Part shown: one piece after another, positions 3,567 to 56,770 of the stretch | Layout: each line of letters starts with the position of its first letter | Position numbering within the stretch: the first letter of the stretch is position 1 | From: an uncultured bacterium | Lineage (GTDB): Bacteria; Chlamydiota; Chlamydiia; Chlamydiales; SM23-39 | Length of the DNA: 64,000 nucleotides | Direction: 5' to 3' | Assembly: GCA_964641775.1 (NCBI GenBank) | Contig: CAZXLK010000001.1 | Location: 144 to 64,143 of the forward strand | Notes under the pieces: model-generated | Told to the model about the DNA's origin: nothing | Database searches by the model: none | Seen by the model: the letters and a program-made list of their open reading frames with translations, nothing else | Position numbers and translations under genes: made by a program

Positions 3567-3619
3567 AGTATTTATTATATTGATTATTAATAGTTTGTGC
3601 ATTAAAATCATGCGCAAAC

Positions 3620-5495: not shown

Positions 5496-5505
5496 AAGAA
5501 GAAGT

Positions 5506-5577
5506 CACCACAGAGATAGATACCACAGAGAAAAAAAGAAATTTTATTCATCCCTCTGTGGTGTCTATCTTTGTGGT
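5506..5577. repeat. REP-like palindromic element (CACCACAGAGATAGATACCACAGAGAAAAAAA ... CCTCTGTGGTGTCTATCTTTGTGG)
   Basis: The inverted arms were read directly. The element lies between convergent genes and overlaps the 3' end of the MscS gene (stop at 5565). Related copies occur at 15798-15930 and 19562-19633. Confidence 0.8.
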
Positions 5578-6620
5578 AAAAAAGCTAGTTCACGAACTTG
5601 GATATTACGACGTTGCATAATGTCGCAGATTTGGATCAGGATATTTTGCTTGATTGCCATGTAATCGCCATATTGCGTGGTTTTGGTATAGCCCCGTATT
5701 TCTAATTCAATGGCCGATTCGCTAAATTGTAAAATATGTACAAAAATGGGTTGCCTGGTATCGATATCTTTGTGAGATGCAAAAAGCTCGCGAATTTCTT
5801 CAGTCAAACCGACAATCTCAGAAAAATCGCTATAGCGAAGGAGAAGCTTTTCATTGATATGTCTATGGGACATTCTGGATGCATTGATGACAAGCTCATT
5901 CGTGAAGACTGCATTGGGAATATAATGGGGCTGCATGGAAGGATCGCGAAGCGTCGTAAAATACCAGCCAATTTTTTCTACAGAGCCTGCTAATTTTTTC
6001 TGTGGAAGCTCAATTATGTCATTGACTATGAATGGGCGGGAAAGATTGATCGTCATTCCGCCAAAAAAGTTAGCAATCATGTCTTTGCTTGCAAATCCAA
6101 CAGCCGCTGCCCCAATTCCTCCAAATGCCAGTAATGGAGCAATATTGAGCCCGAAATTTTGCAGCAAAGCAAGGGCTGAGAGTATAAGTACCCCAATCGT
6201 ATAAATCTTGCCAAAAAACTCAATCGATGCCGGATCTAAGGTCTTTCTCCCCGCCTGTCTTTTTGCAGCTACAGCTTTTTCAAAAAGGCTTTTCCAGCGG
6301 AAGAAAAACCAGGTCACACAGATCACGACCCCGGCATTCCTCATTGAGGCCGGATCAATCATAAGCCGATTCAGCTGAAATTCCCTTGCTGCCAAATCGA
6401 TCGCAAAGGCAATGAAAAGGATCCATAAAAGGGTCTTCAAAGGGGCTAAAATGGCAAAGTCAAGGTTATAGCGCCAATCGCTTTGATGGTCGGCATAAAG
6501 CCTTTTAAACCGATCACAAACCTTTCTCAAAAAATAATTACTACTGAAGATCAATCCCAAGAAAAGCACCAGCTCGAAAAGCCAGGCAAATTCTACCCAA
6601 ACACTTGCTAAAATAGTCAT
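5565..6620 (-). CDS. mechanosensitive ion channel, MscS family
   Basis: 351 aa with N-terminal TM helices and the MscS core motif FFGGMTINLSRPFIVNDIIE. Confidence 0.85.
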   Translation of the reverse strand: MTILASVWVEFAWLFELVLFLGLIFSSNYFLRKVCDRFKRLYADHQSDWRYNLDFAILAPLKTLLWILFIAFAIDLAAREFQLNRLMIDPASMRNAGVVICVTWFFFRWKSLFEKAVAAKRQAGRKTLDPASIEFFGKIYTIGVLILSALALLQNFGLNIAPLLAFGGIGAAAVGFASKDMIANFFGGMTINLSRPFIVNDIIELPQKKLAGSVEKIGWYFTTLRDPSMQPHYIPNAVFTNELVINASRMSHRHINEKLLLRYSDFSEIVGLTEEIRELFASHKDIDTRQPIFVHILQFSESAIELEIRGYTKTTQYGDYMAIKQNILIQICDIMQRRNIQVRELAFLPQR

Positions 6621-36483: not shown

Positions 36484-37041
36484 TTATAAAAGGCCCATTC
36501 CGTAAACTACTGTAAATATAAAGATCCAAACAAAATCAAGAAAATGCCAAAAATAGGCCAATCTAAAAATTTGTGAATTTATATGGGTTGATAATGGCCT
36601 AAGAAAAAGATGAACCATGAGTATGGCCATCCAAAGAAGCCCGCAAAGAATATGAAGGCCATGCGTTCCAACCAATGTAAAAAAAGCTGATAAAAATGCG
36701 CTTCTTTGCCAGCTAGCATTGCGACCTATAAATTGGGCAAATTCGGAGAGTTCAATATAAAGAAACGAAAGTCCCAATAAAAATGTCACGAAAAACCAAA
36801 AAATGGCCGCACCCTTTTTTTGCCGAAAAATGGAAAAAGTGGCCAAAGAACAAGTAAAGCTACTCGTCAAGAGAATGAGTGTTTCTTGAACCACAGTTGG
36901 CATTTCAAAAAGATCATGAGCTGTTGGTCCTCCAAAGGCGCCATCTTTTAAAACGAGATAGGTTGCAAAAAGGGCTGCAAAAATGACAAGATCTGTCATT
37001 AAATAAACCCAAAAGCCAAAAACCCTTACGTCGTCTTCCAC
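36484..37041 (-). CDS. cyoC: cytochrome o-type quinol oxidase subunit III
   Basis: Contains FGFWVYLMTDLVIFAALFATY and TLVGTHGLHIL. Confidence 0.9.
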   Translation of the reverse strand: MEDDVRVFGFWVYLMTDLVIFAALFATYLVLKDGAFGGPTAHDLFEMPTVVQETLILLTSSFTCSLATFSIFRQKKGAAIFWFFVTFLLGLSFLYIELSEFAQFIGRNASWQRSAFLSAFFTLVGTHGLHILCGLLWMAILMVHLFLRPLSTHINSQIFRLAYFWHFLDFVWIFIFTVVYGMGLL

Positions 37042-38984
37042 TCATTCTCCAGTTTTTTCACCTCATCCGCTTCTATCTCATATTCCGTATTCTCATCGAA
37101 AGAGAGGATGATGAGACATGTAACTGCCCCAAAAATGGCTAAAAAGATCAGCCAATAAATATGCCAAACAATCCCAAAGCCAAATAGAAAAGCAAATCCT
37201 GAAATATAAATCCCCATACCGGTATTTTTGGGCATTTCAAAGGTTTCATATTTTTTCTCGGGCATCTTCCCTTCTTTTTTCCAAACCCAAAATTGTTCTC
37301 GAACACTCACATTCGGGATTTTCGCAAAGTTATAAAAAGGGGGCGGCGATGTAGTAGACCATTCCAAAGTTCTTCCATTCCAAGGATCATTGCCTGCAGG
37401 CTTTTTCTCTTTGAAGCTGATATAGATTTGATAAAGCTGGATCAAAAGCGCGCAGCATATAATGACAAATCCAATTAAAGAGGTCACAAATAGGGGCTGC
37501 CAACCCGTCTCCGACGTATAGTGATCAAGGCGTCTTGTTGCTCCCATAAATCCTAATAAATAGAGGGGAATGAAAGCGAAAAAATAACCAATGATCCAAA
37601 GCCAAAAGGCAATTTTTCCATAATGTTCATTCAGCAAAAAACCAAAGATTTTGGGAAACCAAAAGGTCATCCCTGCAAAAATCCCAAAGATCGCAGCTCC
37701 AATCACCATCGTGTGGAAGTGAGCTACTAAAAATAACGTATTGTGGACCTGAAAATCGGCAGGAGGCGCTGCCATTAAAACCCCTGCCATTCCCCCTATT
37801 GCAAAGACTGTGATAAATCCAATAAACCAAAGCATCGGAGTTGCAAAGATCACCTTGCCCTTAAACATCGTCAAAATCCAAACAAAGACCTGTACGCCCA
37901 TTGGAATGGCAATGAGCATAGTCACAATGCCAAAAAACGCGTTTACGCCGGCTCCTGATCCCATGGTGAAAAAATGATGGAGCCAAACTAAATAGGACAA
38001 AATGGTGATGAGAAGGATCGCTACAACCATCGAGGTATAGCTAAAAATCTTTTTCCCCGAGAAAGTAGAGACAATTTCAGAAAACATCCCAAAGGCAGGA
38101 ATGACTAAAATATAGACCTCCGGATGGCCCCACATCCAGATGAGATTGAAATACATCATCTGGTTGCCGCCAAATCCTGTTGTAAAAAAATGCATTCCAA
38201 AGAAACGATCCAGCCAAATGAGTGCTAAAGTGGCCGTCAAAACAGGAAATGCCGAAATAATCAAAATCATCGCAGAGAGAGCAGTCCAAGGGAAAAGAGG
38301 CATTTTCATGAGAGTCATTCCTGGGGCCCGTTTTTTCAAAATGGTAACCGCAAAATTAATCCCCGCAAGAAGGCTCCCCAAACCCGATAGCTGCAGGCTC
38401 CAAAGCATATAATCGACCCCTACTCCCGGATTGAATTCCAGCTCTGAGAGAGGGGCAATAGCAAGCCAGCCGGTATTCGAAAAATTGCCGCCGACCACAA
38501 AGAAAACATTCAAAAGGATTCCTCCGAAAATGGTAAGCCAAAACCCCAATGAATTTAAAAAAGGAAAGGCAAGATCGCGCGCTCCTATTTGAAGCGGGAT
38601 GATCCAATTCATAATGCCAAAGAAAAATCCCATCGTGACGAAAAAAACCATGATATCGCCATGCGATGTGAAGATTTCCTGAAAGTGGGTTGCGGTTAAA
38701 AAACCTTGGGAGTCTTTTGCAATAGACTGTTGAATCCAGATCATTCCGGCATCAATCATCCCTCGGAAAAACATAATGAGAGAAAAAATTACATACATCG
38801 TGCCGATTTTTTTCGGATCAGTCGATGTCAGCCATTCATTCCAAAGCCAGCCCCATCTCTTTTTTTTCGTAAGATACATCGCAATTGCGACGCCGGCTAC
38901 AATAATAAATACCGTCCCTCCCACTGTATACCAATGATGAGGAAGCGCTTCTTTCGTTAATTTTCCGAACCAAAAACTCATCAA
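37026..38984 (-). CDS. cyoB: cytochrome o-type quinol oxidase subunit I (heme-copper oxidase)
   Basis: 652 aa. Contains WMWGHPEVYILVIPAFG, HHFFTMG and VAHFHTMVIG. Confidence 0.95.
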   Translation of the reverse strand: MMSFWFGKLTKEALPHHWYTVGGTVFIIVAGVAIAMYLTKKKRWGWLWNEWLTSTDPKKIGTMYVIFSLIMFFRGMIDAGMIWIQQSIAKDSQGFLTATHFQEIFTSHGDIMVFFVTMGFFFGIMNWIIPLQIGARDLAFPFLNSLGFWLTIFGGILLNVFFVVGGNFSNTGWLAIAPLSELEFNPGVGVDYMLWSLQLSGLGSLLAGINFAVTILKKRAPGMTLMKMPLFPWTALSAMILIISAFPVLTATLALIWLDRFFGMHFFTTGFGGNQMMYFNLIWMWGHPEVYILVIPAFGMFSEIVSTFSGKKIFSYTSMVVAILLITILSYLVWLHHFFTMGSGAGVNAFFGIVTMLIAIPMGVQVFVWILTMFKGKVIFATPMLWFIGFITVFAIGGMAGVLMAAPPADFQVHNTLFLVAHFHTMVIGAAIFGIFAGMTFWFPKIFGFLLNEHYGKIAFWLWIIGYFFAFIPLYLLGFMGATRRLDHYTSETGWQPLFVTSLIGFVIICCALLIQLYQIYISFKEKKPAGNDPWNGRTLEWSTTSPPPFYNFAKIPNVSVREQFWVWKKEGKMPEKKYETFEMPKNTGMGIYISGFAFLFGFGIVWHIYWLIFLAIFGAVTCLIILSFDENTEYEIEADEVKKLENEWKTT

Positions 38985-39838
38985 TGCATCATGTATTTCA
39001 TTACGATATTATGAAATAAATTGTTTTCAACAGAAGAATAAAGGATCACCGGGTGATTTTGGGAGCGCTTGAGAAGGTCGTGATAGACGTTTTGTGTTAA
39101 TTGGAGAGGCGATTCTTTTACTTTTTTTACCCAATTTTCAAAATCTTCCTTGGAGCTTGATTTTACCTGGAAAGTCATGTCTGCATAGCCCTCTCCATTG
39201 ATTTCTGCAGCCCTTCCTCGATATTCCCCCGGTCCATCTGCCATAATGTGAAGAGGTGTAATCATCCCTGTCATCGCATAGATTTGCCCGCTAAGTTGTG
39301 GAATCCAAAAAGAGTTCATCGGAGAATCATCGGCAGCTAGTTCAAATTTGATAGGTTGCGCTGCAGGAATTTGGATGAAATTAATCGTTGCAATCCCCTC
39401 TTCGGGATAGATGAATAGCCACTTCCAATCAAGGGCTACAACTTGAATAATCAGAGGATCTTTGTCAGAAAGCGGCCTGTAAGGATCGAGCTCGTGGGTT
39501 TTATACCAGTTGATCACAATCATGATTGCAATGACAACTGCTACCGGAACCCAAATAGCCCATTCCCCTATTTTTCCCCAGGAGTGCTCCGGGTCATATT
39601 CCCCTTTTCCCTTTTCTGAATGATATTTCCAAGCAATTCGATAAAGAAAAAACAAGGTAGGAATCACGACCGCAAACATGATCCCATACAAAATCCCAAT
39701 GAGGTGGAGCTCTTTTCTTGCCATGATCCCTTTCGGATGAAAGGTCAGGGCACGTTCGTCATTTAGGACTAAAATGACAGCTAAAAGTCCTAAAAATATG
39801 GCAAGAACACCTACCCAGAATTTGAAAGAGCGTTGCAT
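38981..39838 (-). CDS. cyoA: cytochrome o-type quinol oxidase subunit II
   Basis: Two N-terminal TM segments. SPMNSFWIPQLSGQIYAMTGM matches the CyoA cupredoxin region, which lacks the CuA ligands. Confidence 0.85.
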   Translation of the reverse strand: MQRSFKFWVGVLAIFLGLLAVILVLNDERALTFHPKGIMARKELHLIGILYGIMFAVVIPTLFFLYRIAWKYHSEKGKGEYDPEHSWGKIGEWAIWVPVAVVIAIMIVINWYKTHELDPYRPLSDKDPLIIQVVALDWKWLFIYPEEGIATINFIQIPAAQPIKFELAADDSPMNSFWIPQLSGQIYAMTGMITPLHIMADGPGEYRGRAAEINGEGYADMTFQVKSSSKEDFENWVKKVKESPLQLTQNVYHDLLKRSQNHPVILYSSVENNLFHNIVMKYMMH

Positions 39839-40533
39839 TATCTGATTTCATAAACCAGTGATACGTTTGCTTCAAGAGAAACTTCTCCCGCCTCAATGGG
39901 GGGTGCTGCAGGTCCTGCAGCCTTTGCAAAACATGTAAGATTTAACTGAGGTGCTTTTATTTGCGTATGGCTAAGCGAAATCGAGAGAATCCGGACCAAC
40001 TCAACTCCAGTTGCTCTTGCCATTGTCTCAGCATTTCTCACAGCATTTTGCCCTGCTGCAAAAATCGCCTCATCCCAATAGTCTCTATTCTTACTCAATC
40101 CAAATCGAATATCACTGATGCTATTAGCTCCTGCCTGATTGGCTACATCGATCATTTCACCTGCCATATCGAGCTTCCCTGAATGGATCTGAATCGAATT
40201 AGTCACTTCATATCCATTGATCTCTTGCCTCCAATAAGGAGGAGGGTCTTTTGGTATCGGTGTATAGGTAGGCCGTATGGAAAACTGGCAGGTCTCATAA
40301 TCATCCTTTTCCAACCCAAGTTCTTCCAAATTGCCAATGATATCCCCCATCTTCGCGCTATTTTCCGTGAGAGCCTCTTCTGCCGTAAGCCCTAAAGTAA
40401 TGACCCCAATTTTCATTTGGATCTCATCTGCCGGCTTAGAAATGATCGCTGACGCACTTAAATTCAATTTAGGAACATCTTCCTTCCCAAAAACCGTCGT
40501 ACAACATGCAATGCAAACTAAAAGCCACTTCAT
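39838..40533 (-). CDS. SIMPL/DUF541 periplasmic protein
   Basis: The start MKWLLVCIACCTTVFG is preceded by GGAGGAGAA. GLTAEEALTENSAKMGDIIGNLEELGL is typical of SIMPL. Confidence 0.7.
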   Translation of the reverse strand: MKWLLVCIACCTTVFGKEDVPKLNLSASAIISKPADEIQMKIGVITLGLTAEEALTENSAKMGDIIGNLEELGLEKDDYETCQFSIRPTYTPIPKDPPPYWRQEINGYEVTNSIQIHSGKLDMAGEMIDVANQAGANSISDIRFGLSKNRDYWDEAIFAAGQNAVRNAETMARATGVELVRILSISLSHTQIKAPQLNLTCFAKAAGPAAPPIEAGEVSLEANVSLVYEIR

Positions 40534-40585
40534 TTCTCCTCCAAAATAGAACAAAAATTTTACCTCCCCAGTCATTTGAATGCAA

Positions 40586-40974
40586 GGGTGAAGATCCCGG
40601 TTCGTGTAAGTATTTGGGTGCCTAATTCCAAACTGTGTATTTGATCAGCGCAGAGAAAAAAAATAAAAAGAGTTAGAGAGTACGCAGAGAAGAAAAATTG
40701 GCTGCTTCGCAGCATGGAGTTAGAACGGCCAGGCCGGAGATTAGGAGTTGTGTATGAATAATCAATTGACTAATAAAATCATAACTAAGGTATTCGCCGA
40801 TTTGTTTTAGGAACCTCATTAACTCCGGCCTGGCCGATCTAACTCCTGCCGCTTTAGCGGCTATTTTTTTATCTCCGTGAACTCTCTAACTCCCTTTATT
40901 TTTCTCTGTGCTGATCAAATTCACAATTTGGGATCAAACACCCTTTTCATAACACAAACTGGGATCTACACCCC
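40586..40974 (+). mobile_element. internally deleted (MITE-like) derivative of the GxxExxY-gene palindromic element
   Basis: The ends GGGTGAAGATCCCGGTT.. and ..AACTGGGATCTACACCCC match those of the 55.7-kb element. It retains ATGAATAATCAATTGACTAATAAAATCATAACTAAG fused to the gene 3' end GTATTCGCCGATTTGTTTTAG. Confidence 0.75.
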
Positions 40975-41077
40975 TGTTAATTAAACAATTCTGTGAAAAT
41001 TTCTTTTGTGATTAATTTGGATTTGTTTTACAAAAATAAATCAACGAGTAATTTTAATAATTTAATGAAGGGAATAT

Positions 41078-42307
41078 ATGCTTAAAGACAGAATTAAAGT
41101 TAAAGAAAGAAATAGCTGCAGAGTTTGTGGCGGCAAATTGCAGGAAGTATTTGATTTAGGGCTACTTCCAATCTCATGTTTTCCTAAACCGGAAGATCCG
41201 AATCCCGAGTCTCATCCTGTAAAGCTTGCTTTCAACCAGCAATCAGGGCTTGTGCAGCTTTGCCACTCGGTGGATCCGGATGAAATGTATTCTGAATATT
41301 GGTACATGTCAGGCGTCAATCAAACAATGACTCTTGCCCTCATGTCTGTCGTCGATCAAGCAATGAAGCGAGCCCAAAAACTCACAAAAGGGGATGTGGT
41401 TGTAGATATTGCCAGCAATGACGGCACCCTTTTAGCAAACTATCCCGACTTCCTCTTCCGAGTTGGCATTGATCCTGCAAAAAACATCCGGCCGAAATGC
41501 TGCAATCTACATATCAATACCTATTTTAGTAAAGATGCCTACAAAAAAGAGCTTGGTTCAAAAAAAGCCAAAATCATCACTTCCATTGCGGTGTTTTATG
41601 ATTTGGAAGATCCCATTAGTTTTGCAAAAGATGTAAAAGAAATTCTCCATCCGGATGGTATTTGGGTGGTCGAGCTAAGTTATTTACCAACAATGCTTCA
41701 GAAAAATTCCTTTGATACGATTTGCGCCGAGCATCTGGAATATTATTCTCTTCAAGCTTTGGAAAATATCTTCTCGAAGGCTCATTTAAAAGTCGAAGAT
41801 GTAGAACTAAACGATGTAAATGGGGGAAGCATCCGCCTTTATATTCGACATGCGTCTTCTAAAGTGAAAGAGAGCGGGGCAGTAAAAAATCTCCGATATC
41901 GGGAAAAAAATCTCAAACTTACAGAGATTGAGACCTACATTGATTTTCGAGATCGGGTCAAAAATAATAAAAAAGAGATGATCGCCTTTTTAGAAGAGCA
42001 AAAATCGCTTGGCAAAAAGGTCATCGGTTATGGCGCATCGACTAAAGGCAATACAATCCTTGCCTACTATGGAATTGGACCTGATCTACTCCCCTATATC
42101 TGCGATCGCAATCCCATTAAATGGGGAAGACATACAGTCACCCGGATTCCCATCATTTCCGAAGATGAAGCAAGAAGAATGAACCCCGATTATTTCTTGG
42201 CACTCCCCTATCACTTCATGAGAGAGTTTCTAGCGAGAGAAAAAGAATTTCTCGCCGCAGGTGGAAAGTTTGTTTCCCCCATTCCTGAACTTACATTTTT
42301 TTCATAA
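41078..42307 (+). CDS. C-methyltransferase-like enzyme (NDP-sugar C-methyltransferase / TylCIII-like architecture)
   Basis: N-terminal Zn-ribbon CRVCGGKL, SAM motif VVDIASNDGTLL, and a C-terminal Rossmann-like GKKVIGYGASTKGNT. Confidence 0.75.
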   Translation: MLKDRIKVKERNSCRVCGGKLQEVFDLGLLPISCFPKPEDPNPESHPVKLAFNQQSGLVQLCHSVDPDEMYSEYWYMSGVNQTMTLALMSVVDQAMKRAQKLTKGDVVVDIASNDGTLLANYPDFLFRVGIDPAKNIRPKCCNLHINTYFSKDAYKKELGSKKAKIITSIAVFYDLEDPISFAKDVKEILHPDGIWVVELSYLPTMLQKNSFDTICAEHLEYYSLQALENIFSKAHLKVEDVELNDVNGGSIRLYIRHASSKVKESGAVKNLRYREKNLKLTEIETYIDFRDRVKNNKKEMIAFLEEQKSLGKKVIGYGASTKGNTILAYYGIGPDLLPYICDRNPIKWGRHTVTRIPIISEDEARRMNPDYFLALPYHFMREFLAREKEFLAAGGKFVSPIPELTFFS

Positions 42308-42322
42308 CAAGAGGTAATAATA

Positions 42323-43018
42323 ATGAAAAATTATTCAAAAACATTAGATACTTATGATTATGTAACAACAAAAGAAATTAACGGAATTGACCAGATAATT
42401 AATGCAATTATTTTTTCATCATTTAGACCATTTCATCAACATAGAAAATGGGAATATGGTATTTGCCTAAATGCTCTTCGTGAAAGTGGGGCAAAAACCG
42501 TATTGGATGTTGGCGGAACGGGCTCAATGTTTGCTGCTTGCGCCACTTTTCATGGAATGGATGTTACAGTTTTGGACCCTGATGCAGAGGGAGCATACTT
42601 TATTGAAAATCAAAACCGGGTTTTTAAAAGGGATGCTATTCGTTTTATCAATGAGGACTTTTTCCAATTTAAGACGGATCAAAAATATGACGCCGTTGTT
42701 TGCATTAGCACTTTGGAACACGTACCTAATGATTTTGCCTTCTTTAAACGGCTTTTGGGTTTAGTAAAAGATGACGGTTTAGTTTTCCTAACTATGGATT
42801 TTCATCCTAACGGAATGGTGCACGTCGATGGCCATCTTCGAACTTATAATCAAGAGAGGATAGAGACCCTCATAAACATCGCAAAACAAGAAGGTTTTGA
42901 GATTTTTGGCGAGTCTCCCGATTACACATGGAGAGCACCGGATGTCAATGGCTATACTTTTGCATCCCTTGCGCTTCGAAAAAAGGGTCATAATAGCGGA
43001 GATTTTTTTAAAGTTTGA
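42323..43018 (+). CDS. class I SAM-dependent methyltransferase (B-type domain of the array)
   Basis: Contains VLDVGGTGSMFA, DVTVLDPD and YDAVVCISTLEHV. Confidence 0.8.
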   Translation: MKNYSKTLDTYDYVTTKEINGIDQIINAIIFSSFRPFHQHRKWEYGICLNALRESGAKTVLDVGGTGSMFAACATFHGMDVTVLDPDAEGAYFIENQNRVFKRDAIRFINEDFFQFKTDQKYDAVVCISTLEHVPNDFAFFKRLLGLVKDDGLVFLTMDFHPNGMVHVDGHLRTYNQERIETLINIAKQEGFEIFGESPDYTWRAPDVNGYTFASLALRKKGHNSGDFFKV

Positions 43019-43032
43019 GAGGAAATAAATAT

Positions 43033-44367
43033 ATGTATTTAAAAGAAATTGAAGATCGGGTGTTGAATCTGCCCGAAAGAAAATTAAACTATCTCCATGC
43101 CTTAAAGGCTCATGGAGCAAGTAGAATCTGTGTCATCGGAGACGATGACACTTTTTTTTCTTTTGCTGCTGCATCCAATGGAATAGAGGTCACAGTGGTG
43201 CATCCTGATTCTGCCTTTGACAAGTACAATCTATTGATTGGCAGCCGTTTAATTACCTATACCCCCTTGGATCATTTAAAGAATAAATTCGATGCAGTAA
43301 TTTGCAATGATGCTGGGTGCCTGGAAGCTGCTTTAAGCCTTGTAAATGAAGGGGGGTTATTATTTACAAATAGCTCTATCCAAGATGATAGATTTGAGCC
43401 ATGTTCTTATCAATTGGGCATTTTTAAAAAAAGAAAAACACGGGACACACCCGTTGTTTTTTTTGTAAATCATAAAGCCCAGAATTGCGGCACTCATCAA
43501 TATGGTAAAAGAATTGCAAACATCATAAAAAATTCTCAAAAGTGTCAATTTGTGTATGTGGAGGCAGACACTGCAGATGAGTTTTTGCTTCAATATCAGA
43601 GATTTAAACCCAATGGAATTATCTACAATTTTCATTATCTTACAATGCAATGGCTGGAGTGCTCCCTTAGAGAACAAATTAAAAAACAAAAGGTTTTTCA
43701 AGCCTCTATCTTTCATGATCATGTCTTACATGACTTTGATCATTATATCCCGGTTGATCCAAATTTTCCCGAATCGGAGATCAGTTTTCAGAGCCCAAGG
43801 CCATTATTAGAATATGAAAACAAATTTCCTCTTTCCCAAATTCCTATCATCAATTGTTTTGGTTTTGGCTTTGGCAATAAGGGGCATATCAAATTAGCCC
43901 AATTAGTAAATCATCAATTTGATCAGGCCATTTTGAATTTTCATATCCCTGCAAATCAATTTTGCGACTCGCAAGGAATGCAAGCGAGAATGATTGCAAA
44001 TTATTGTCAAAGAGCCATTACAAAACAAGGGATCCAAATCCGTGTAAGCCATGCATTTATGCCGGAAAATGAACTGCTCGACTTTTTAGCAAAGGGCAGT
44101 TTGAATGCATTTTTATATGACGAACTCAATGGATGTGGATGTGCAAGCACCATTGATTATGCAATATCAGTAAAAAGACCTATTGCAATCACAAAGAGCC
44201 ATATGTTCCGCCATATTCGCGATGCAAAACCGAGCATTTGTGTGGAAGATCGGAGCCTCAAAGAAATTATGGCCTCCGGATTTGCCCCATTAGAGCCATA
44301 TTACGAAAAATGGAAACCTTCTAATTTGATTCAAGCCTATGAAAAAATAGTAAAAGAGCTTCTATAA
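43033..44367 (+). CDS. two-domain protein: degenerate Rossmann/MT-like N-domain + GT-B-like glycosyltransferase domain
   Basis: The start MYLKEIEDR is preceded by GAGAGGA. The N-domain has RICVIGDDD..FDAVICND. The C-domain has VVFFVNHKAQNCGTHQYGKR..INCFGFGFGNKGH..FLAKGSLNAFLYDE..RPIAITKS. Confidence 0.7.
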   Translation: MYLKEIEDRVLNLPERKLNYLHALKAHGASRICVIGDDDTFFSFAAASNGIEVTVVHPDSAFDKYNLLIGSRLITYTPLDHLKNKFDAVICNDAGCLEAALSLVNEGGLLFTNSSIQDDRFEPCSYQLGIFKKRKTRDTPVVFFVNHKAQNCGTHQYGKRIANIIKNSQKCQFVYVEADTADEFLLQYQRFKPNGIIYNFHYLTMQWLECSLREQIKKQKVFQASIFHDHVLHDFDHYIPVDPNFPESEISFQSPRPLLEYENKFPLSQIPIINCFGFGFGNKGHIKLAQLVNHQFDQAILNFHIPANQFCDSQGMQARMIANYCQRAITKQGIQIRVSHAFMPENELLDFLAKGSLNAFLYDELNGCGCASTIDYAISVKRPIAITKSHMFRHIRDAKPSICVEDRSLKEIMASGFAPLEPYYEKWKPSNLIQAYEKIVKELL

Positions 44368-44380
44368 AAAAAGGATCTAC

Positions 44381-45955
44381 ATGAAAACTTATTCAAAAAC
44401 TTTAAGTTTGCAGGATTATAAAGACATTCCTGAAATGAATTTTGTCACCTATATGAAAGATAGATTGCATGGCACATATCTTCCTTGTCATGAACATCGG
44501 AGTTGGCAATATGGTCTTTGTTTACATGCACTTAGAACTCACGGAGCAAAACGAATTTTAGAAGTAGGCGGCACCTATTCGATATTTGCTGCATCTGCTG
44601 CTTGGTTCGGCATGGATGTTACGGTTGTAGATCCGGATGGTGCGGGAGTCGAGCTCTTCGCAAGACAAAATATCATTCAGCAATTTCAAGAGCATCGCGT
44701 CCATTTAGTCCAGAAAGATTTTATGCACTATTGGACGAGAAAAAAATTCGATGCTGTGGTTTGTCATAGTCTTTTAGAACACATTGAAGATGATCATTCC
44801 TTTTTTCTCAGGCTACTCAATTTTGTAAGAGAGGGGGGCCTTCTCTATCTTACAGTTGATTTTCATGAAAGCGGTCTTGTTGTAGGGAGTCATTTAAGAT
44901 CCTATAACCAAGCAAGGCTTAATGATTTCATTCAAATTGCTCAAAAGTATGGTTTCGATTTATATGGAGGAGCGGCTGATTATTCTTTTCAGGGAGAATT
45001 TGCCTCTCTTGCTTTGATACGTAAAAAAACAAAACCCACGGTTTTACTTGTAAATCATAAACAAAAAAAACAATGCGGCGTCTTTCAATTTGGCAAACGG
45101 ATTGGGGATCTAATTACCCGCTCTCAAAAATGTAATTTTATCTATGTAGAGGCCGATTCTTTAGATGAATTTTTGCCCTACATCGATATCCATAAGCCTA
45201 GAGGAATCATTTACAATGTCAATTTGCAAAATCTTAGTTGGCTGAGTCAAGAAATAGTGAACCAGATCCGCTCTGCAGGAATTTTTCAAGGATGTATTTA
45301 TCATGAATTTATTATGAGGCTTTTTGATTTCTATATTCCGATGGATCCTGATTTACCGGATAGCGAAGTGAGTTTTAATATGCCGAGACCTCTCTTTGAA
45401 TATGAAAACCCCTATCCAATACCTACTATCCCTACAATCAATAGTTTTGGATTTGGCGATCCTCATAAAGGTTTTGATCTAGTTGCAAAAAAAGTAAATG
45501 ATGAATTTGATCACGCCATTTTAAATATCCATATGACATATAATGACTTTGATCCAAACGCCGTTGAAAAGGCGAACAAAATAGCTAATGCCTGTTATAG
45601 CAATATCACAAAAAAAGGGATTCAATGTAATATTACTAACTCTTTTATGACAGATGAAGAACTCCTTGATTTTCTGGCAAAAGGGAGCTTGAATGCTTTC
45701 TTTTATTACGATCTGCCCGGAAGAACCATTTCTAGCGTAATTGATTTTGCCTTATCAGTGAAAAGGCCAATTGCAATCAGAAAAAGTTATATGGATCGGC
45801 ATGTGTTGAATACAAACCCCAGCATCTGCATCGAGGATCGCAGTCTCAAAGAGATTCTGAATTCAGGCACTCCCCCCCTAGAGCCTTATTACAAAAAATG
45901 GAACTTCTCAAAAACCATCGAAGCTTACGAGAGAGTAGTAGAAAGCTTTATTTAA
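44381..45955 (+). CDS. fusion protein: B-type SAM methyltransferase + GT-B-like glycosyltransferase domain
   Basis: The N-terminal part parallels 42323..43018 (ILEVGGTYSIFAASAAWFGMDVTVVDPD). The C-terminal part parallels 43033..44367 (VLLVNHKQKKQCGVFQFGKR..INSFGFGDPHKG..FLAKGSLNAFFYY). Confidence 0.75.
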   Translation: MKTYSKTLSLQDYKDIPEMNFVTYMKDRLHGTYLPCHEHRSWQYGLCLHALRTHGAKRILEVGGTYSIFAASAAWFGMDVTVVDPDGAGVELFARQNIIQQFQEHRVHLVQKDFMHYWTRKKFDAVVCHSLLEHIEDDHSFFLRLLNFVREGGLLYLTVDFHESGLVVGSHLRSYNQARLNDFIQIAQKYGFDLYGGAADYSFQGEFASLALIRKKTKPTVLLVNHKQKKQCGVFQFGKRIGDLITRSQKCNFIYVEADSLDEFLPYIDIHKPRGIIYNVNLQNLSWLSQEIVNQIRSAGIFQGCIYHEFIMRLFDFYIPMDPDLPDSEVSFNMPRPLFEYENPYPIPTIPTINSFGFGDPHKGFDLVAKKVNDEFDHAILNIHMTYNDFDPNAVEKANKIANACYSNITKKGIQCNITNSFMTDEELLDFLAKGSLNAFFYYDLPGRTISSVIDFALSVKRPIAIRKSYMDRHVLNTNPSICIEDRSLKEILNSGTPPLEPYYKKWNFSKTIEAYERVVESFI

Positions 45956-45959
45956 CAAA

Positions 45960-46124
45960 GAGGTTGTGAAAAAATGGTTACTCATTCGCTTTTGGTAAAT
46001 TTTTGGCCCTTTTTCCGCTTTAGCCTTCGACCAACTCTATTCGAGTTGGCCTTAAGCTTGCATCGAAAAAATTGCAGAAAAATTTAAGCAAAATCGATGG
46101 GCGCCCCCATTTTTTCACAACCTC
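45960..46124. repeat. 165-bp intergenic element bounded by perfect 18-bp inverted repeats
   Basis: GAGGTTGTGAAAAAATGG at 45960-45977 and CCATTTTTTCACAACCTC at 46107-46124 were read directly. An inner small hairpin is CCAACTC/GAGTTGG. Confidence 0.7.
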
Positions 46125-46153
46125 AAAGTCTTCGGGGACCCGTGCGGTCCCCT

Positions 46154-47227
46154 CTATATAAAATGAATTAGATTTTCTTTTATTTTTTTAATAGGAACAG
46201 AGTAACAATTGCTTCTCTTATTGTTTCGAAAAAGTCTCATTGTCGGATACCAGTAACTATCATTTCGGAAGATGCCCCACCTCCAACAGGGCAAAAAGGG
46301 TATGAGAACCCAAGTTGGAATTCCCATAGACCCACTTAGATGGGCGATCGAAGTATCGCAAAGAATGGCTAATTCACAGGTTTTTAAAATCTCTACAGTG
46401 TCTAAAAAGGTTTCGATTTTAGGCCTTTGAATCCCATACATCTTAAGTAGTTTTTCTTCTTCCTGAGAGACTATTTTCTGGACAACAACAAATTGGGTGT
46501 TAGGTTCATCGAATAGAGTAGTAAATTGTGCAAGATCGATCGATTTGCCAGGATAAATACAGGGGTCTATGCGAGGATTTTCAGATTCAGTTCTCCACAT
46601 AATTGCAATTCTTCTTTGAATCGGCTTTAGTTGGATGTTTAAAGGCAACGGAGGAGGAACATTAAAAGGATCTGTTCTACATGTGTAACCCAAACTATCA
46701 TGATAGATAATTTTATCTACATGATCCCAAAGGCTATAGTCTGAATGGATTGTGACATCTAAATGTTCAAGGAGGGAATGTAATTCAGGCTGCAAATGTA
46801 TCGAGACATTGCAGAATTTTTTCAAATAGGGAACATAACGGAGCCATTGGATTGAGTCTCCTAAGCCTCCATGGCAATAAATCAGGAGTTTTTGTCCCTC
46901 TATATTTTCCCCTCTCCATAACTTTGTTTTTGGAATCGGCTTTAAATAAGGGTCGATGCGAGCTTCATGAAGCTCTAATCCCTTCATTAAATCTCCTTTT
47001 ATGAGAACACTAAGGCATTGAAAATATAAAAATCGGGGGTCAGGATTGTTATTAAAAGCATATTGCCAAGCATTGATCGCTTCATCATAACTTTTTAAAA
47101 GATAGAACCAATTAGCAAGAACAGGCCAACTTGCCGGATTTATATTATGTGATACTTTCCGGCACAACTCTAAAGCCTTATCCTCCTCACCTTTTAAAAG
47201 GAATTCCGAAAATAATTTCTCAACCAT
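46154..47227 (-). CDS. short-TPR + GT9-like glycosyltransferase (paralog of 10643..12412 C-terminal part)
   Basis: Contains LLIYCHGGLGDSIQWLRYVP and CDTSIAHLSGSMGIPTWVLIPFLPCWRWGIFRNDSYWYPTMRLFRN. Confidence 0.8.
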   Translation of the reverse strand: MVEKLFSEFLLKGEEDKALELCRKVSHNINPASWPVLANWFYLLKSYDEAINAWQYAFNNNPDPRFLYFQCLSVLIKGDLMKGLELHEARIDPYLKPIPKTKLWRGENIEGQKLLIYCHGGLGDSIQWLRYVPYLKKFCNVSIHLQPELHSLLEHLDVTIHSDYSLWDHVDKIIYHDSLGYTCRTDPFNVPPPLPLNIQLKPIQRRIAIMWRTESENPRIDPCIYPGKSIDLAQFTTLFDEPNTQFVVVQKIVSQEEEKLLKMYGIQRPKIETFLDTVEILKTCELAILCDTSIAHLSGSMGIPTWVLIPFLPCWRWGIFRNDSYWYPTMRLFRNNKRSNCYSVPIKKIKENLIHFI

Positions 47228-47296
47228 ATTTATCTTTTTTCCTTATACCGCTCGTGATTGAAAATCTATATTAATGTAAAAATTATTTCTATTGTG

Positions 47297-47338
47297 TTTT
47301 TTCTGTATTTAATGATAATTATTTTTTTGCATTTATTT
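47297..47338 (+). promoter_or_regulatory. conserved AT-rich upstream element TTTTTTCTGTATTTAATG..ATTATTTTTTTGCATTTATTT
   Basis: Near-identical to 49442-49484 upstream of the paralogous gene. Confidence 0.35.
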
Positions 47339-47388
47339 ATAATATGTCGTAGAAAGAGATGGAAGGAAAAAACATCATAGGTTTTAAT

Positions 47389-48723
47389 ATGTATTTAAAA
47401 GACATTGAAGATAAGATTTCGAATCTATCTGTTAAGAAATTAAAGTATCTCCATGCATTAAAGGCTCATGGAGCAAATCGAATCTGTGTCATTGGCAACG
47501 ATGACATAGATTTATCATTTGCTGCAGCGTCAAACGGAATGCAGGTAACGGTAGTCAATTATGATCCTGCTTTTGATAAGTACAATTTATTGAACTCGAA
47601 ACACTCAATTACCTACATCCCTTTTGACCATCTAACGAAAAAGTTCGACGCAGTGATTTGTAATATCCCTTTGGGCAATCTAAAGGATCGAACTTTAAAG
47701 CTTGTAAATGCCGGTGGATTATTATGTATTAATAGCTCATTGGAAAGTGATCGTTTTGAGGCTTTTCAAGAAGGTATTTTTAGAAAGAGAAAAACTCGGG
47801 ACATCCCCGTTATTTTCTTTGTGAATCATAAAGCGCATCAGTGTGGTGTTTATCAATATGGTAAAAGAATTGCCGACATCTTAAAAAATTCAAAGAATTG
47901 TTATTTTCATTATGTAGAATCTGATTCTGCTCAAGAATTTGCAAATCAATATAATAACTTTAAGCCAAACGGAATCATCTATAATTTTCATTATCTTACC
48001 ATGAAATGGCTTGATACGAACCTTAGAGAACAAATTAAAAACCATGAAGTCTTTCAAGTCTCTATTTTTCATGATCATGTCTTGGCTGGCTTTGATTATT
48101 ATATTCCGGTTGATCCAAATTTTGAAGAATCGAAAATCAGTTTTCAGAGCCCAAGGCCATTATTTGAATATGAAAACAAATTCCCTCTTTCCCAAATTCC
48201 GATCATCAATTGTTTTGGGTTTGGCTTCGGCAATAAAGGGCAGATCAAATTAGCCCAATTGGTGAATTATGAATTTGATGAGGCGATTTTGAACTTTCAC
48301 ATCCCTGCGAGTCACTTTTGCGACGCTCAAGGAATGCAGGCGCAGGCAATTGCAAATTTATGTCAAAGAGCCATCACAAAAAAAGGAATTCAACTCCATC
48401 TAAGCCATAGATTTATGCCGGAAAATGAGTTGCTCGATTTTTTAGCAAAGGGCAGTTTGAATGCATTTCTTTACGATGAACTCAATCTAGGTGGATGTGC
48501 AAGCACCATTGATTATGCATTATCTGTAAAAAGACCTATTGCAATTACAAAGAGCCATATGTTTCGCCATATTCGCGATGCAAAGCCCAGCATTTGCGTA
48601 GAAGATCGAAGTCTTAAAGAAATTATGGCATCCGGCTTTACACCATTAGAGCCATTTTACGAAAAATGGAAACCATCCAATTTGATTCGATCCTATGAAA
48701 ATATAGTAAAAAAGCTTGTTTAA
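47389..48723 (+). CDS. two-domain MT-like + GT-B-like protein, close paralog of 43033..44367
   Basis: The start MYLKDIEDK was chosen by homology. The C-terminal ~100 aa are almost identical to the paralog (RPIAITKSHMFRHIRDAKPSICVEDRSLKEIMASGF). Confidence 0.75.
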   Translation: MYLKDIEDKISNLSVKKLKYLHALKAHGANRICVIGNDDIDLSFAAASNGMQVTVVNYDPAFDKYNLLNSKHSITYIPFDHLTKKFDAVICNIPLGNLKDRTLKLVNAGGLLCINSSLESDRFEAFQEGIFRKRKTRDIPVIFFVNHKAHQCGVYQYGKRIADILKNSKNCYFHYVESDSAQEFANQYNNFKPNGIIYNFHYLTMKWLDTNLREQIKNHEVFQVSIFHDHVLAGFDYYIPVDPNFEESKISFQSPRPLFEYENKFPLSQIPIINCFGFGFGNKGQIKLAQLVNYEFDEAILNFHIPASHFCDAQGMQAQAIANLCQRAITKKGIQLHLSHRFMPENELLDFLAKGSLNAFLYDELNLGGCASTIDYALSVKRPIAITKSHMFRHIRDAKPSICVEDRSLKEIMASGFTPLEPFYEKWKPSNLIRSYENIVKKLV

Positions 48724-49385
48724 ATATTTCGTCTTCCCGGATGAAGAACATAATCCATAATAACATTTGGCTTAACGGGATGCACTGCAGCATCCCTAAA
48801 ATTTTTCGGCATGAATGGTCCCGAATTCATTCTCATCATCTGTTCCAAACAACGCTCCGGAGAAGTAGAACTGCCATAAATAGAATTTAATGTTAGAAGA
48901 TCTTTATAATCCCAAGCTTTCATAAAATTCTTAGGCGTTGCACATCCGGTAATATCTAAATAATATGGACCGGAAACATAAGCATCTTTTTCGAAACATT
49001 GATTCAGATCATAAAACTTATAGGAAGTGTCGATTCGACAATAAAAAACAAAATCAAAATTTTTAAAATTTTCATAAATACGATTTGATCCATTCTTCAT
49101 GGTGTAAAAATGCTTATAAGCATGATATGCACAGCAGCCATCTGGGGTTCTTGTCCTTAATAAATTCGTTTCCACATCAATTCGATCTGGTTCATCTACT
49201 AGAATAGGTAAATCGATCTTTGTCGATAGATGTTCTACAAATTCTCTATCTAATGGGTTATTCCATGTATGAAGAACAACTTTTACTTCATGGTCTACAA
49301 AACTATTGATTATGTCTTGAAAATTAGATAGGCAAAATTTAAGATCTGGTCTAATCGGTCCTTTTATAAAAATAACGATTTTCAT
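48720..49385 (-). CDS. hypothetical protein, weak WavE-like N-terminus (tentative glycan-synthesis accessory)
   Basis: 221-aa ORF. KIVIFIKGPIRPD..VKVVLHTWNN resembles the WavE family start. The functional call is low confidence. Confidence 0.5.
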   Translation of the reverse strand: MKIVIFIKGPIRPDLKFCLSNFQDIINSFVDHEVKVVLHTWNNPLDREFVEHLSTKIDLPILVDEPDRIDVETNLLRTRTPDGCCAYHAYKHFYTMKNGSNRIYENFKNFDFVFYCRIDTSYKFYDLNQCFEKDAYVSGPYYLDITGCATPKNFMKAWDYKDLLTLNSIYGSSTSPERCLEQMMRMNSGPFMPKNFRDAAVHPVKPNVIMDYVLHPGRRNI

Positions 49386-49432
49386 TATATTCTCCTTGTT
49401 AATTCTAGTTTACAATTTAAAATTTATATCAT

Positions 49433-49484
49433 TCTACTAGATTTTTTCTGTATTTAATGCAAATTATTATTTTGCATTTATTTT
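49433..49484 (+). promoter_or_regulatory. conserved upstream element TCTACTAGATTTTTTCTGTATTTAATG..TTGCATTTATTTT
   Basis: Shares 20 nt (TCTACTAGATTTTTTCTGTA) with 52413-52432, and the rest with 47297-47338. Confidence 0.35.
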
Positions 49485-49546
49485 CGACTTATTTCACACT
49501 GGAATTTAGAATTTTGATAAATTGCATAATTAAACATAAGGAATTT

Positions 49547-51124: not shown

Positions 51125-51164
51125 AAATAAATAAAATGCTTGCTCTTATTGAGCAAGCATATTT

Positions 51165-52355: not shown

Positions 52356-52412
52356 TATTTAATTAATCTGTTATTAATACGATTCGAATTTAAAAAGATT
52401 ATATTAGATTTG

Positions 52413-52432
52413 TCTACTAGATTTTTTCTGTA
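52413..52432 (+). promoter_or_regulatory. third copy of the TCTACTAGATTTTTTCTGTA motif, immediately upstream of the arginase-family gene
   Basis: Identical 20-mer to 49433-49452. It also sits in a divergent intergenic region. Confidence 0.3.
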
Positions 52433-52441
52433 AATTATTAT

Positions 52442-53329
52442 ATGTGCCAAAATATGGGGCGTATCTATCACGTAATTGGGGCCTCCTCCTGCTGGGGGGC
52501 GCAGATTAGGGCGTGCGAAAAAGGGCCGCGCGATTTGATCGAAGGAAGAGTTTTTGAAAGGCTTCAGCAGATGGGCGTCAAAATCAAAGATATTGAAATG
52601 CTCTTTCCTAACGAGAGGGCATCGGAAGTCAAACACCCTCTTGCTTCATCGCTTCCACTCATCCATGAATTCAATGTCCGCTTAGCGAAAAGAGTCCGTG
52701 AGATTCGGCAAAAAGGACAAATGCCCGTTGTCATTGGCGGCGACCATACAAATGCCGTAGGGACATGGAATGGGATGGAAAAGCCTTTTGGCCTTCTTTG
52801 GATTGATGCTCACATGGATGCCCATACGATGGAAACGACTCCATCAGGCGCCTTTCATGGGATGCCGGTTGCTGCGCTACTCGGTCATGGAGTGAGAGAA
52901 CTTTCGCAGCTTTTGAAAAAAGAGCCTGTTTTAACTCCGGAGCGACTTGCACTCATAGGGACCCGCTCTTTTGAAGAAGGAGAGGCCGATCTTTTAAAGA
53001 AATTGGGCGTGAAGATCTATTTCATCGAAGAAGTTCAAAAGCGGGGTTTAAAAGAGATTATCCCTGAGGCCATTGAACACGTAACTAAAGGGAGTCTTTC
53101 TCTTGGAATTAGTCTTGATCTCGATGCCTTTGCAATTGACGAGGCCCCGGGCGTGGGAAGTCCCGAATCGGGAGGAATCCATGCCAAGGAAATGCTTCCC
53201 CTCTTTTCGATCATTGGGAGCGATCCAAGGCTTTTAGCCTTTGAAATTGTTGAATTTAACCCCGAGCTTGACGTGAACCATATGACTAGAGAGCTGGTTT
53301 TTCAGATTTTAGAAAGAGTGATGCAATGA
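52442..53329 (+). CDS. arginase/ureohydrolase family enzyme (arginase-like)
   Basis: Mn-ligand motifs GGDHTNAVG, WIDAHMDAHT and SLDLDAF are present. The start could be 52442 or 52454. Confidence 0.85.
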   Translation: MCQNMGRIYHVIGASSCWGAQIRACEKGPRDLIEGRVFERLQQMGVKIKDIEMLFPNERASEVKHPLASSLPLIHEFNVRLAKRVREIRQKGQMPVVIGGDHTNAVGTWNGMEKPFGLLWIDAHMDAHTMETTPSGAFHGMPVAALLGHGVRELSQLLKKEPVLTPERLALIGTRSFEEGEADLLKKLGVKIYFIEEVQKRGLKEIIPEAIEHVTKGSLSLGISLDLDAFAIDEAPGVGSPESGGIHAKEMLPLFSIIGSDPRLLAFEIVEFNPELDVNHMTRELVFQILERVMQ

Positions 53330-55697: not shown

Positions 55698-56569
55698 GGG
55701 TGTAGAACTAAGTTCGGGTTATGATAGAGTGTTTAATCCCAAATTGTGAATTTGATCAGCACAGAGAAAAAAATAAATGGAGTTAGAGAGTTCGCGGAGA
55801 AAAAAATGGCTGCTTCGCAGCATGGAGTTAGAACGGCCAGGCCGGAGTTAATGAGGTTGCTTTATCTCCCAAAACAAATCGGCGAATACCCTGTTTTAAA
55901 ATAGGTACGTTGAAGTTTAAAAGAAGGCCGATAGATTTGTTCATGAGCCGAAGGTATGTAAGAATTTGTGATGCATGGGTGTCTAGGAGAGCTTCGACTG
56001 CTTTGAGTTCTACGATAACTGTATTTTCTATTAAGAAATCAACACGGAAGCCACAATCAAGGTTCTTACCTTTATAATTTAAAGGAACCGATACTTCTCT
56101 TTGATAGTTTAAGTTAAAATTCTCTAACTCTGATGCCAAGCAAGTTTGATAAGTACCTTCTAAAAGACCGGGTCCAAGATGTTTATGGACCTCAATCCCG
56201 GCAGCTATGATTTTCTGAGTTAATTGATTATCCATAACGCAACTCCTAACCTCTGGCCTGGCCGTTCTAACTCTTTGCAGCTTTATCGGCTATTTTTTTT
56301 CTCTCTAGCTGATCAATTTTACACACCCTGGAATTAAAAGCCCATCTATTACATAAGCTGGGTTTCACACCTTTAAAAAAGGGTATTCGCCGATTTGTAT
56401 TGGGAGATAAAGCAACCTCATTAACTCCGGCCTGGCCGTTCTAACTCCATGCTGCGAAGCAGCCATTTTTCCCTCCGTGAACTCTCTAACTCCATTTTTT
56501 TCTCCGCGCTGATCAATTCACAATTTGGGATTAAGTACCCTATCATAACTCAAACTGGGTACCACACCC
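55698..56569. mobile_element. palindromic element carrying a GxxExxY gene: complete copy (55698-56371) plus adjacent truncated inverted half copy (56381-56569)
   Basis: The ends are GGGTGTAGAACTAAGTTCGGG.. and ..CTGGGTTTCACACC / ..AACTGGGTACCACACCCC. An ~190-bp inverted repeat joins 55698-55891 to 56381-56569. The element fills the interval between two convergent stop codons exactly. Confidence 0.75.
55828..56235 (-). CDS. GxxExxY protein (PD-(D/E)XK-like small protein family)
   Basis: 135 aa. The eponymous motif appears in GPGLLEGTYQ (G-L-L-E-G-T-Y). VDFLIENTVIVELKAV is the typical D..E.K core. Confidence 0.85.
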   Translation of the reverse strand: MDNQLTQKIIAAGIEVHKHLGPGLLEGTYQTCLASELENFNLNYQREVSVPLNYKGKNLDCGFRVDFLIENTVIVELKAVEALLDTHASQILTYLRLMNKSIGLLLNFNVPILKQGIRRFVLGDKATSLTPAWPF

Positions 56570-56770
56570 CTAATGCTCGATGACAAAAGAAATTTTGGCG
56601 TTCACTCGAAAGGTTGTGATCTTGTCATTTTCCACTTTGCCGTGGATCCATTTGAGATCGATCTGCTTAATATTTTTTAGAGTTTTAGCGGCTTCTTTTA
56701 CCCCGTTTTGCATGGCCTCTTCGATGGATTTGCCTTCGCAAGATATTTCAATGACTTTTACAATAGACAT
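56570..56770 (-). CDS. dodecin-family flavin-binding protein
   Basis: MSIVKVIEISCEGKSIEEAMQNGVKEAAKTLKNIKQ..FRVNAKISFVIEH, preceded by the SD AAAGGAGGA. Confidence 0.8.
   Translation of the reverse strand: MSIVKVIEISCEGKSIEEAMQNGVKEAAKTLKNIKQIDLKWIHGKVENDKITTFRVNAKISFVIEH

Follow-up and report, generated by a model that had tools for sequence, protein, structure and literature searches.

This study concerns a 389-bp sequence at positions 40586-40974 of a 64,000-nt stretch of contig CAZXLK010000001.1, which comes from an uncultured member of the Chlamydiales and is called the window below (always meaning the whole stretch). The sequence lies between a SIMPL gene (39838-40575, minus strand) and a C-methyltransferase gene (41078-42307, plus strand). 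Judged from its letters, it is the dead copy, with an internal deletion, of a palindromic element whose intact form carries a gene of the GxxExxY family and is found in the same window at about 55.7 kb, and this reading is well supported. By itself, such a decayed palindromic element without its gene is a modest finding. Its wider interest lies in the GxxExxY family and in the repeats that frame its genes.

The 389-bp sequence was aligned with the 55.7-kb locus on both strands, and the arms were compared in a four-way alignment. Against the minus strand of the locus, it is collinear over ~370 nt with both gene ends included, which bears out the original prediction of a shared architecture and goes beyond mere low-complexity similarity. 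From left to right, the element consists of a ~168-nt arm that ends in the AGGAG ribosome-binding site of the former gene, the ATG with nt 1-30 of the open reading frame (ORF; 26 of 30 positions as in the intact gene), a junction of five bases, GGTATTCGCCGATTTGTTTT (22/23 identical to the 3' piece of the intact gene), and an arm of ~164 nt. Thus ~315 nt of the ORF are deleted, whereas its first 30 nt and ~20 nt from its 3' end are kept, as are the ribosome-binding site and the two arms. The junction reads ...AAAATCATA/ACTAA/GGTATTCGCC..., and the coding capacity left is an 18-codon mini-ORF. Since features of the left type stand beside the start codon (GGAGATTAGGAGTTGTGT) and those of the right type follow the gene remnant (AACCTCATTAACTCC), each in its place, we are dealing with a whole element minus its middle and not with two stray arms. 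The opposite orientation relative to the intact copy and the position between the SIMPL gene and the first methyltransferase gene of a downstream array had been described correctly, and so had the derivation from the GxxExxY-locus element by internal deletion, with both arms and both gene ends present at a different site.

Some details of that first description need correction. Instead of the first 12 codons of the gene, only codons 1-10 are homologous, codons 11-12 being junction sequence. The supposed last codons GTA TTC GCC GAT TTG TTT TAG were read with a one-base frame shift; the true frame is GGT ATT CGC CGA TTT GTT (GIRRFV). Neither is this 3' remnant the end of the gene, as the ORF, where intact, extends into the arm by another 14 codons. 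Finally, the intact locus does not stop at 56371 (it had been given as 55698-56371) but extends over 55698-56573, with an extra arm at 56372-56573.

Structurally, the 389 bp form a single long imperfect hairpin. Folded as single-stranded DNA, the sequence reaches a minimum free energy of -106.2 kcal/mol, versus -38.8 +/- 4.3 in dinucleotide shuffles (z = -15.6). The arm core GTTAGANCGGCCAGGCCNGAG occurs five times in the 64-kb window, once in each of five arms, where 0.01 occurrences are expected, and TTGATCAGCRCAGAGAAAAA occurs four times (again 0.01 expected); within the window, both motifs are confined to these elements. A promoter scan of the 389-bp and intact elements gave nothing above shuffle expectation. 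There is no target-site duplication at the 389-bp element, its flanks (...GAATGCAA on the left, TGTTAATT... on the right) being without a direct repeat. Among SIMPL relatives on long contigs, the closest one (L089, 73% identical) lacks synteny and provides just 89 nt of upstream sequence; it represents neither an empty nor an occupied site.

Long perfect palindromes can be artefacts of assembly or amplification, and the arms do contain A-runs, so a fold-back chimera or a low-complexity resemblance must be considered. We regard it as barely credible. The palindrome is imperfect, the collinear match described above takes in both gene ends, and the same architecture is present in four other genomes and in dozens of metagenome contigs. 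Moreover, an independent Logan assembly (SRR9179562, contig L088) reproduces the SIMPL gene at 100% identity together with the outer 83 nt of the left arm, which are identical as well, before the contig ends inside that arm; the feature is therefore real and no artefact of one contig.

The intact locus consists of a minus-strand gene between inverted arms plus a third, outer arm, and occupies the entire spacer between convergent antiporter and dodecin genes (Table 1). With the outer arm, the present palindrome folds at -245.7 kcal/mol (z = -19.1). Its right arm extends over the final 14 ORF codons, to about 55862, and its inner left arm has lost ~34 nt, including the second CGCAGAG unit. The outer arm, whose end overlaps the stop codon of the dodecin gene, is 91% identical overall to the right arm, which makes them the best-matching arm pair in the window; an inverted repeat of 130 nt (55771-55900 / 56372-56501) is 95% complementary. 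It looks as if one arm has been re-copied to the other side of the gene, beside the decayed original left arm. Here, too, no target-site duplication was found: the TAA on both sides coincides or overlaps with host stop codons. Every long arm contains a small GC hairpin with an outward-facing T-run after it, which resembles a terminator (40701-40713, 40848-40861, 55809-55821, and 56451-56463). Three of them have the stem GCTGC/GCAGC; the short element's right arm has GCCGC-TTTA-GCGGC, a compensated variant in which a two-sided change keeps the pairing.

Table 1. Elements of the window and their parts (coordinates of the window; strand as +, - or., the last for hairpins given without strand)
Feature	Position	Strand	Remarks
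Left arm, gene-deleted element	40586..40753	+	TTGATCAGCGCAGAGAAAAA, second CGCAGAG unit, local hairpin GCTGC-TTC-GCAGC, palindrome CGGCCAGGCCG
GxxExxY gene remnant	40754..40810	+	40754-40783, ORF nt 1-30; 40784-40788, junction
GxxExxY 3' remnant	40789-40810	+	GGTATTCGCCGATTTGTTTT(AG), out of frame
Right arm, gene-deleted element	40811..40974	+	86% identical to right arm of intact copy
Right (3') arm, intact element	55698..55827	-	Begins one base past the antiporter stop codon
Intact GxxExxY gene, 135 aa	55828..56235	-	TIGR04256, 142.5 bits
Inner left (5') arm, intact element	56237..56371	-	Decayed; 67-70% identical to other arms
Extra outer arm	56372..56573	+	Inverted duplicate of right arm plus last ~70 nt of the gene
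Small gene-less hairpin	5497..5580	.	Arms TCACCACAGAGATAGATACCACAGAG and complement, loop ~23 nt; between convergent genes; z = -9.7
Small gene-less hairpin, composite	15800..15935	.	Between convergent genes; z = -7.2
Small gene-less hairpin, more decayed than the other two	19552..19641	.	Directly after the stop codon of gene 19642-20196; z = -3.95

The arms of the two elements differ considerably. While the two right arms share 86% identity, the short left arm is 81% identical to the full right arm and only 70% to the full inner left arm. The arms of the short element (~165 nt) are thus 14-30% diverged from those of the intact copy, and 74.5% alike to each other. The 389-bp element is not a recent product of the 55.7-kb copy.

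This bears directly on the MITE label (for miniature inverted-repeat transposable element) that had been attached to the sequence. A true MITE would have arisen once by deletion and then have been moved or copied in trans by the protein of a full-length element. The build fits type I of this class, in which long terminal inverted repeats are combined with both ends of the parent's gene (PMC10969869), and the copy sits at another site in the opposite orientation. Also consistent are the gene-less hairpins that are common beside GxxExxY genes in other genomes (sometimes in tandem arrays), the three small gene-less hairpins of the window itself, and the Logan contig that stops inside the arm, as contigs often do at repeats. 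However, 64 kb hold one such copy without a target-site duplication, two census attempts yielded no further one (both had low power), and the arm divergence places any movement in the distant past. Furthermore, GxxExxY is not known to be a transposase, and distant relatives stay at orthologous sites. We judge amplification as a MITE to be rather unlikely. The favoured course of events is that the gene was lost in place, after which the arms drifted apart. In-place decay of a second full copy explains the data as well as amplification of a short element does, and a pseudogene in a metagenome contig (L072, see below) shows that such a route exists.

What the lost gene encoded can be seen from the intact copy. 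Its product matches the TIGR04256 model ("GxxExxY protein") over residues 4-121 with 142.5 bits (cut-off 35; E = 6.9e-42), and PF13366 (PDDEXK_3) is recorded on all its homologues. In an alignment of 111 sequences, the motif G23-L-L-E26-G-T-Y29 and the residues D66, E76, and K78 are invariant or nearly so; D66 and E76 are strictly invariant, and K78 is present in at least 90% of the sequences. The AlphaFold2 model built from these sequences has a predicted local distance difference test score (pLDDT) of 91 and a predicted template modelling score (pTM) of 0.83; it replaced a first model from 25 sequences (pLDDT 52). Residues 122-135, which are read-through into the arm, are modelled as disordered. 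The top structural match in the PDB is 4ic1 (SSO0001; E = 3.7e-4, 27% identity over ~110 columns, template modelling score ~0.5), which we take to be a Cas4 nuclease of Sulfolobus, and relatives of lambda exonuclease rank after it. A Cas4 profile is matched weakly (E = 0.0012), and among PDB sequences the profile of the family found no match. Together, the modelled fold and the conserved residues suggest a minimal Cas4-like PD-(D/E)XK nuclease, a bare core of ~120 aa with its catalytic residues intact.

The family is very large, comprising 35,907 clusters at 50% identity (E <= 1e-3) in a set of 1.84 billion representatives. The best-scoring members in that set (P0230-P0245) measure 240-295 aa and show two profile matches each, i.e., they are tandem GxxExxY fusions. 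Searches of open-access text by family names, accessions, and repeat sequences found nothing on the function of GxxExxY proteins or on flanking repeats; the sole superfamily survey that mentions the family lists its function as unknown (PMC3424549).

The long-armed design recurs in relatives of the window's bacterium. This bacterium appears to be Parachlamydiales-like: homologues of the SIMPL protein are named Parachlamydiales or Chlamydiae, one GxxExxY homologue is named Chlamydiales, and a CT021-family gene is among the neighbours of the GxxExxY gene in locus L002. The closest GxxExxY proteins are 62-73% identical to that of the window (by alignment), and the closest homologues bear C-terminal tails of ~20 aa ending in ...SLTQGKxPS, which are arm sequence. 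In four loci (L001-L004; 62-66% identity over the full alignment), the gene lies between inverted arms of 67-177 nt that are 81-98% complementary. All clade loci have a common arm skeleton, namely GATCAGCRCAGAGA ... TAGAGAGT-CRCRGAG ... TTAGAG ... a small GC palindrome ... GAGT-AGAGAG. Arm identity amounts to 51-77% between loci, versus 93-98% within L001, L002, and L003. L001 lies on an 817-kb ENA contig; there, the upstream arm is repeated in tandem about six times as a ~130-nt unit (2194-2997), and ~1.5 inverted arm copies follow downstream of the gene (3391-3572). With arms being duplicated, inverted, and re-copied among the clade loci, they are evidently dynamic.

The five related loci, i.e., that of the window and L001-L004, occupy five different gene neighbourhoods. 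To that extent, and indirectly, the past mobility of the family that the original prediction proposed receives support; more distant relatives, however, are stable at orthologous sites (see below). An arm-core match in L007, the sole match in a genome contig collection without the source genome, lies inside an ORF of an unrelated Oligoflexia metagenome-assembled genome and was dismissed as chance. An alignment of arm-encoded peptides matched nothing in a set of 5.8 billion proteins, a search without power, as the window's own arm ORFs were missed too.

Beyond this clade, a contig scan with the protein alignment provided 80 metagenome loci, whose proteins are 47-61% identical. When the 350 nt upstream are compared with the downstream region, most loci give inverted matches of ~40-97 bits, versus ~16-22 bits in the same-strand control. 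The upstream arm starts with (T)TCACC, followed by about three CRCNGAG units at a spacing of 1-3 bases; the downstream arm is the exact reverse complement, ending in GGTGAA, and lies at or overlaps the stop codon. The arms are true inverted repeats, spacers between the units included. Defining a cluster as two or more CRCNGAG units and counting brackets within 200 nt of the gene, we found a forward cluster upstream combined with a reverse cluster downstream at 52 of the 66 eligible loci, the opposite arrangement at 2, and a background density of 0.29 clusters per kb at more than 300 nt from the gene. Genes of this family nearly always stand between inverted arrays of one short motif, and the layout is general among them.

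In the same loci, gene-less forward-reverse hairpins are common as well (30 with loops <150 nt), some of them in tandem arrays. Such arrays adjoin GxxExxY genes in L015 (2862-3354), L044 (580-873), L055 (1392-1611), and L084 (2231-3154). In L015, L043, and L044, whole hairpins flank the gene, which is then not inside a hairpin itself. A larger pair of forward and reverse clusters in L023 was not accepted as a unit because it brackets ordinary host genes. The pseudogene mentioned above is the second GxxExxY gene of its contig (L072, 4298-4720); it is frameshifted and still framed by forward and reverse unit clusters, and represents a halfway stage of in-place decay.

Many of the 80 loci group by collinear flanks, which allows their inheritance to be followed in these distant relatives of the window element. 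Orthologous GxxExxY positions exist in genomes that have diverged to ~69-84% nucleotide identity (L018/L063, L050/L057, and L009/L016/L078/L010/L062). In L018/L063, identity is 72-75% for the neighbouring proteins and 73.5% for GxxExxY, a similar divergence, and hence the gene was inherited with its neighbours. Between L009 and L016 (84% nucleotide identity), ORF substitutions fall mostly on third codon positions, as under purifying selection.

Within a locus, the repeat units change together. In one member of the L018/L063 pair, each of the six units is CACGGAG, and in the other, each is CACAGAG. More generally, unit position 2 (A or G) is uniform within the locus in 53 of 58 loci, with an agreement of 0.49 between loci. 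Position 4 is free: units that pair in the stem agree in 112 of 161 cases, where 110.6 are expected from random pairing within the locus. To judge from these patterns, the units resemble six copies of one recognition site, maintained in the same form, more than they do a stem under selection for RNA pairing.

The latter is nonetheless a rival to be weighed. If the element acted at the RNA level, its arms would pair in the transcript, and the stem would be cut by RNase III or act as terminator or insulator; in that case, the divergent intergenic region would harbour, in the form of the 389-bp copy, a structured RNA or a terminator module. In keeping with this, stems longer than 25 bp surround a small ORF, the elements adjoin host-gene stop codons, the small hairpins sit at gene 3' ends, and the GC hairpin with its outward T-run is present in each long arm with its pairing kept (GCTGC/GCAGC versus GCCGC/GCGGC). 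ORF-bearing intervening sequences (IVS) with inverted repeats are, moreover, a known phenomenon (PMC4990558). On the other hand, arm mismatches on the sense strand show no excess of G.U-compatible over A.C combinations (104 versus 113, p = 0.59), and the units of a locus share one variant whatever their partner. An Rfam scan of the whole window matched no family, rRNA included; no rRNA gene is involved, and the nearest structural relatives of the protein act on DNA. All in all, we consider an RNA-level role improbable, and more so than amplification as a MITE.

In their general build, three small hairpins in the window (~85-135 nt) match the regions that flank GxxExxY genes elsewhere. All three lie at the 3' ends of genes and fill the spacers there, and their motif gives six arm matches in the window with none expected; it is absent from all fetched loci. 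At 17966-18114, between two minus-strand genes, the window further contains three tandem copies of a 46-nt unit (AAACGCAAACGAAGGGGTCCCCGAAGACGCATCGTCTTTGGGGTAG), 98-100% identical, with small palindromes inside.

How could protein and repeats belong together? By analogy with REPIN/RAYT, they may form a system of a nuclease and its cognate repeat, with the 389-bp copy as a deletion derivative; to this proposal we give an even chance. In each of the two arms of its own element, the nuclease would recognize the repeated units, and it would cut or recombine there. This activity could keep the two arms alike (the re-copied outer arm at 56372-56573 has the look of such an event), could duplicate them, as in the six tandem arms of L001, and might occasionally produce or spread gene-less hairpins. 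A copy deprived of its own nuclease, such as the 389-bp element, would let its arms drift apart, which is how the 74.5% found here, versus 91-98% in most gene-bearing copies, might be understood.

Critically speaking, several observations weigh against this proposal. The association of protein and repeat is purely positional. One gene-bearing relative, L004, has poorly matched arms (70-81%), so that few loci underlie the contrast between decaying and maintained arms. As for the 80 metagenome loci, they are the top matches to a single query alignment, include ~10 orthologous groups, and do not amount to 80 independent observations. Orthologous loci have been stable over ~30% nucleotide divergence, which means that transposition is rare, if it occurs at all, and target-site duplications were found neither at the two window elements nor in relatives. 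Lastly, the arms of the small window hairpins are unlike those of the window's GxxExxY gene, and any nuclease on which these hairpins may depend is not evidently the one encoded here.

More broadly, and rather tentatively, GxxExxY proteins could be the nucleases of a widespread, undescribed class of palindromic-repeat systems, a PD-(D/E)XK counterpart to RAYT and REPIN. Each gene would stand between inverted arrays of its own CRCNGAG-type units, which the protein would maintain, homogenize, and occasionally spread in the form of gene-less hairpins, the 389-bp element being one decayed product. For a family of unknown function, this raises a concrete question, namely whether the protein binds and cuts the units that flank its own gene. 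If it does, this would mean a second, independent origin of the relation that links bacteria to a resident repeat family in REPIN/RAYT, and it would explain many short palindromic intergenic repeats as well as the odd C-terminal tails annotated from them.

The 389-bp element had also been seen as the left border of a glycosylation island. It does coincide with a drop in G+C content, which is 0.34-0.39 over 40.5-52.5 kb and 0.42-0.45 on either side, and it lies exactly at the left edge of this stretch; nothing, however, ties the element causally to the island. The intact element is located 3.3 kb past the right edge, after genes of ordinary composition. Encoded in the low-G+C stretch (40500-52500) are four proteins with methyltransferase domains, together with several paralogous ones that lack Pfam hits (repeat families at 43-51 kb); a search of this array for glycosyltransferase domains at E <= 1e-5 was negative. 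A protein resembling the large chain of RuBisCO is encoded at 51165-52355. Elsewhere in the window, direct repeats of 51-117 nt with 73-78% identity connect 36503-37388 to 62865-63767 at a constant offset of ~26.36 kb, which suggests a diverged second copy of part of a quinol/cytochrome oxidase gene region.

Among known systems, REPIN/RAYT, in which REP-associated tyrosine transposases accompany doublets of palindromic repeats (PMC5581495, PMC3337134, PMC8266576), offers the closest parallels. Both have a single small nuclease gene (predicted as such here) framed by inverted copies of a short repeat (at 52/66 loci in our case), gene-less hairpins of that repeat in intergenic regions and often at gene 3' ends (30 in the same loci), vertical inheritance of gene and repeats over long periods (here in distant relatives), and repeats that are homogeneous per genome or locus and differ between lineages. 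For the long-armed type of the window, only one gene-less copy was seen. The proteins differ, as GxxExxY has a predicted PD-(D/E)XK fold of the Cas4 kind and not that of an HUH/Y1 (IS200/IS605-like) transposase, and hence it is not a member of that family. So do the repeats: a GxxExxY arm consists of about three directly arrayed 7-nt units or, in the Parachlamydiales-like clade, of an elaboration of 100-200 nt, whereas a REP is palindromic in itself and carries a GTAG tag. Many GxxExxY genes, furthermore, lie inside the hairpin loop itself, and the activity of their products is a predicted one.

With type-I MITEs, the 389-bp element shares its size (the class spans ~50-500 bp), its long terminal inverted repeats, the stable hairpin, the absence of coding capacity for a transposase (PMC10969869), and the retention of sequence from both ends of a gene-bearing relative. 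It departs from them in being a single copy in 64 kb that lacks a target-site duplication, in having a parent gene that is no known transposase, and in belonging to a family whose members are stable residents and not frequent jumpers.

The IVS in the 23S rRNA of Leptospira and Coxiella, where an S23p ORF is enclosed by inverted repeats that form a long stem, are likewise small ORFs of unknown function within stem-forming repeats, and both kinds are regarded as selfish elements (PMC4990558). The window elements differ in lying between protein-coding genes in a stretch that is free of rRNA, in their protein family, and in arm mismatches that give no evidence of selection at the RNA level. As for the protein itself, the conserved D...ExK motif, the match to 4ic1, and the weak Cas4 profile match place it near the PD-(D/E)XK nucleases of the Cas4 and lambda-exonuclease type. 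Whereas full Cas4 has an Fe-S cluster domain, GxxExxY aligns only as a ~120-aa core; no CRISPR array or cas genes were seen nearby, no CRISPR RNA family was matched in the window, and GxxExxY proteins form an NCBI family of their own, TIGR04256.

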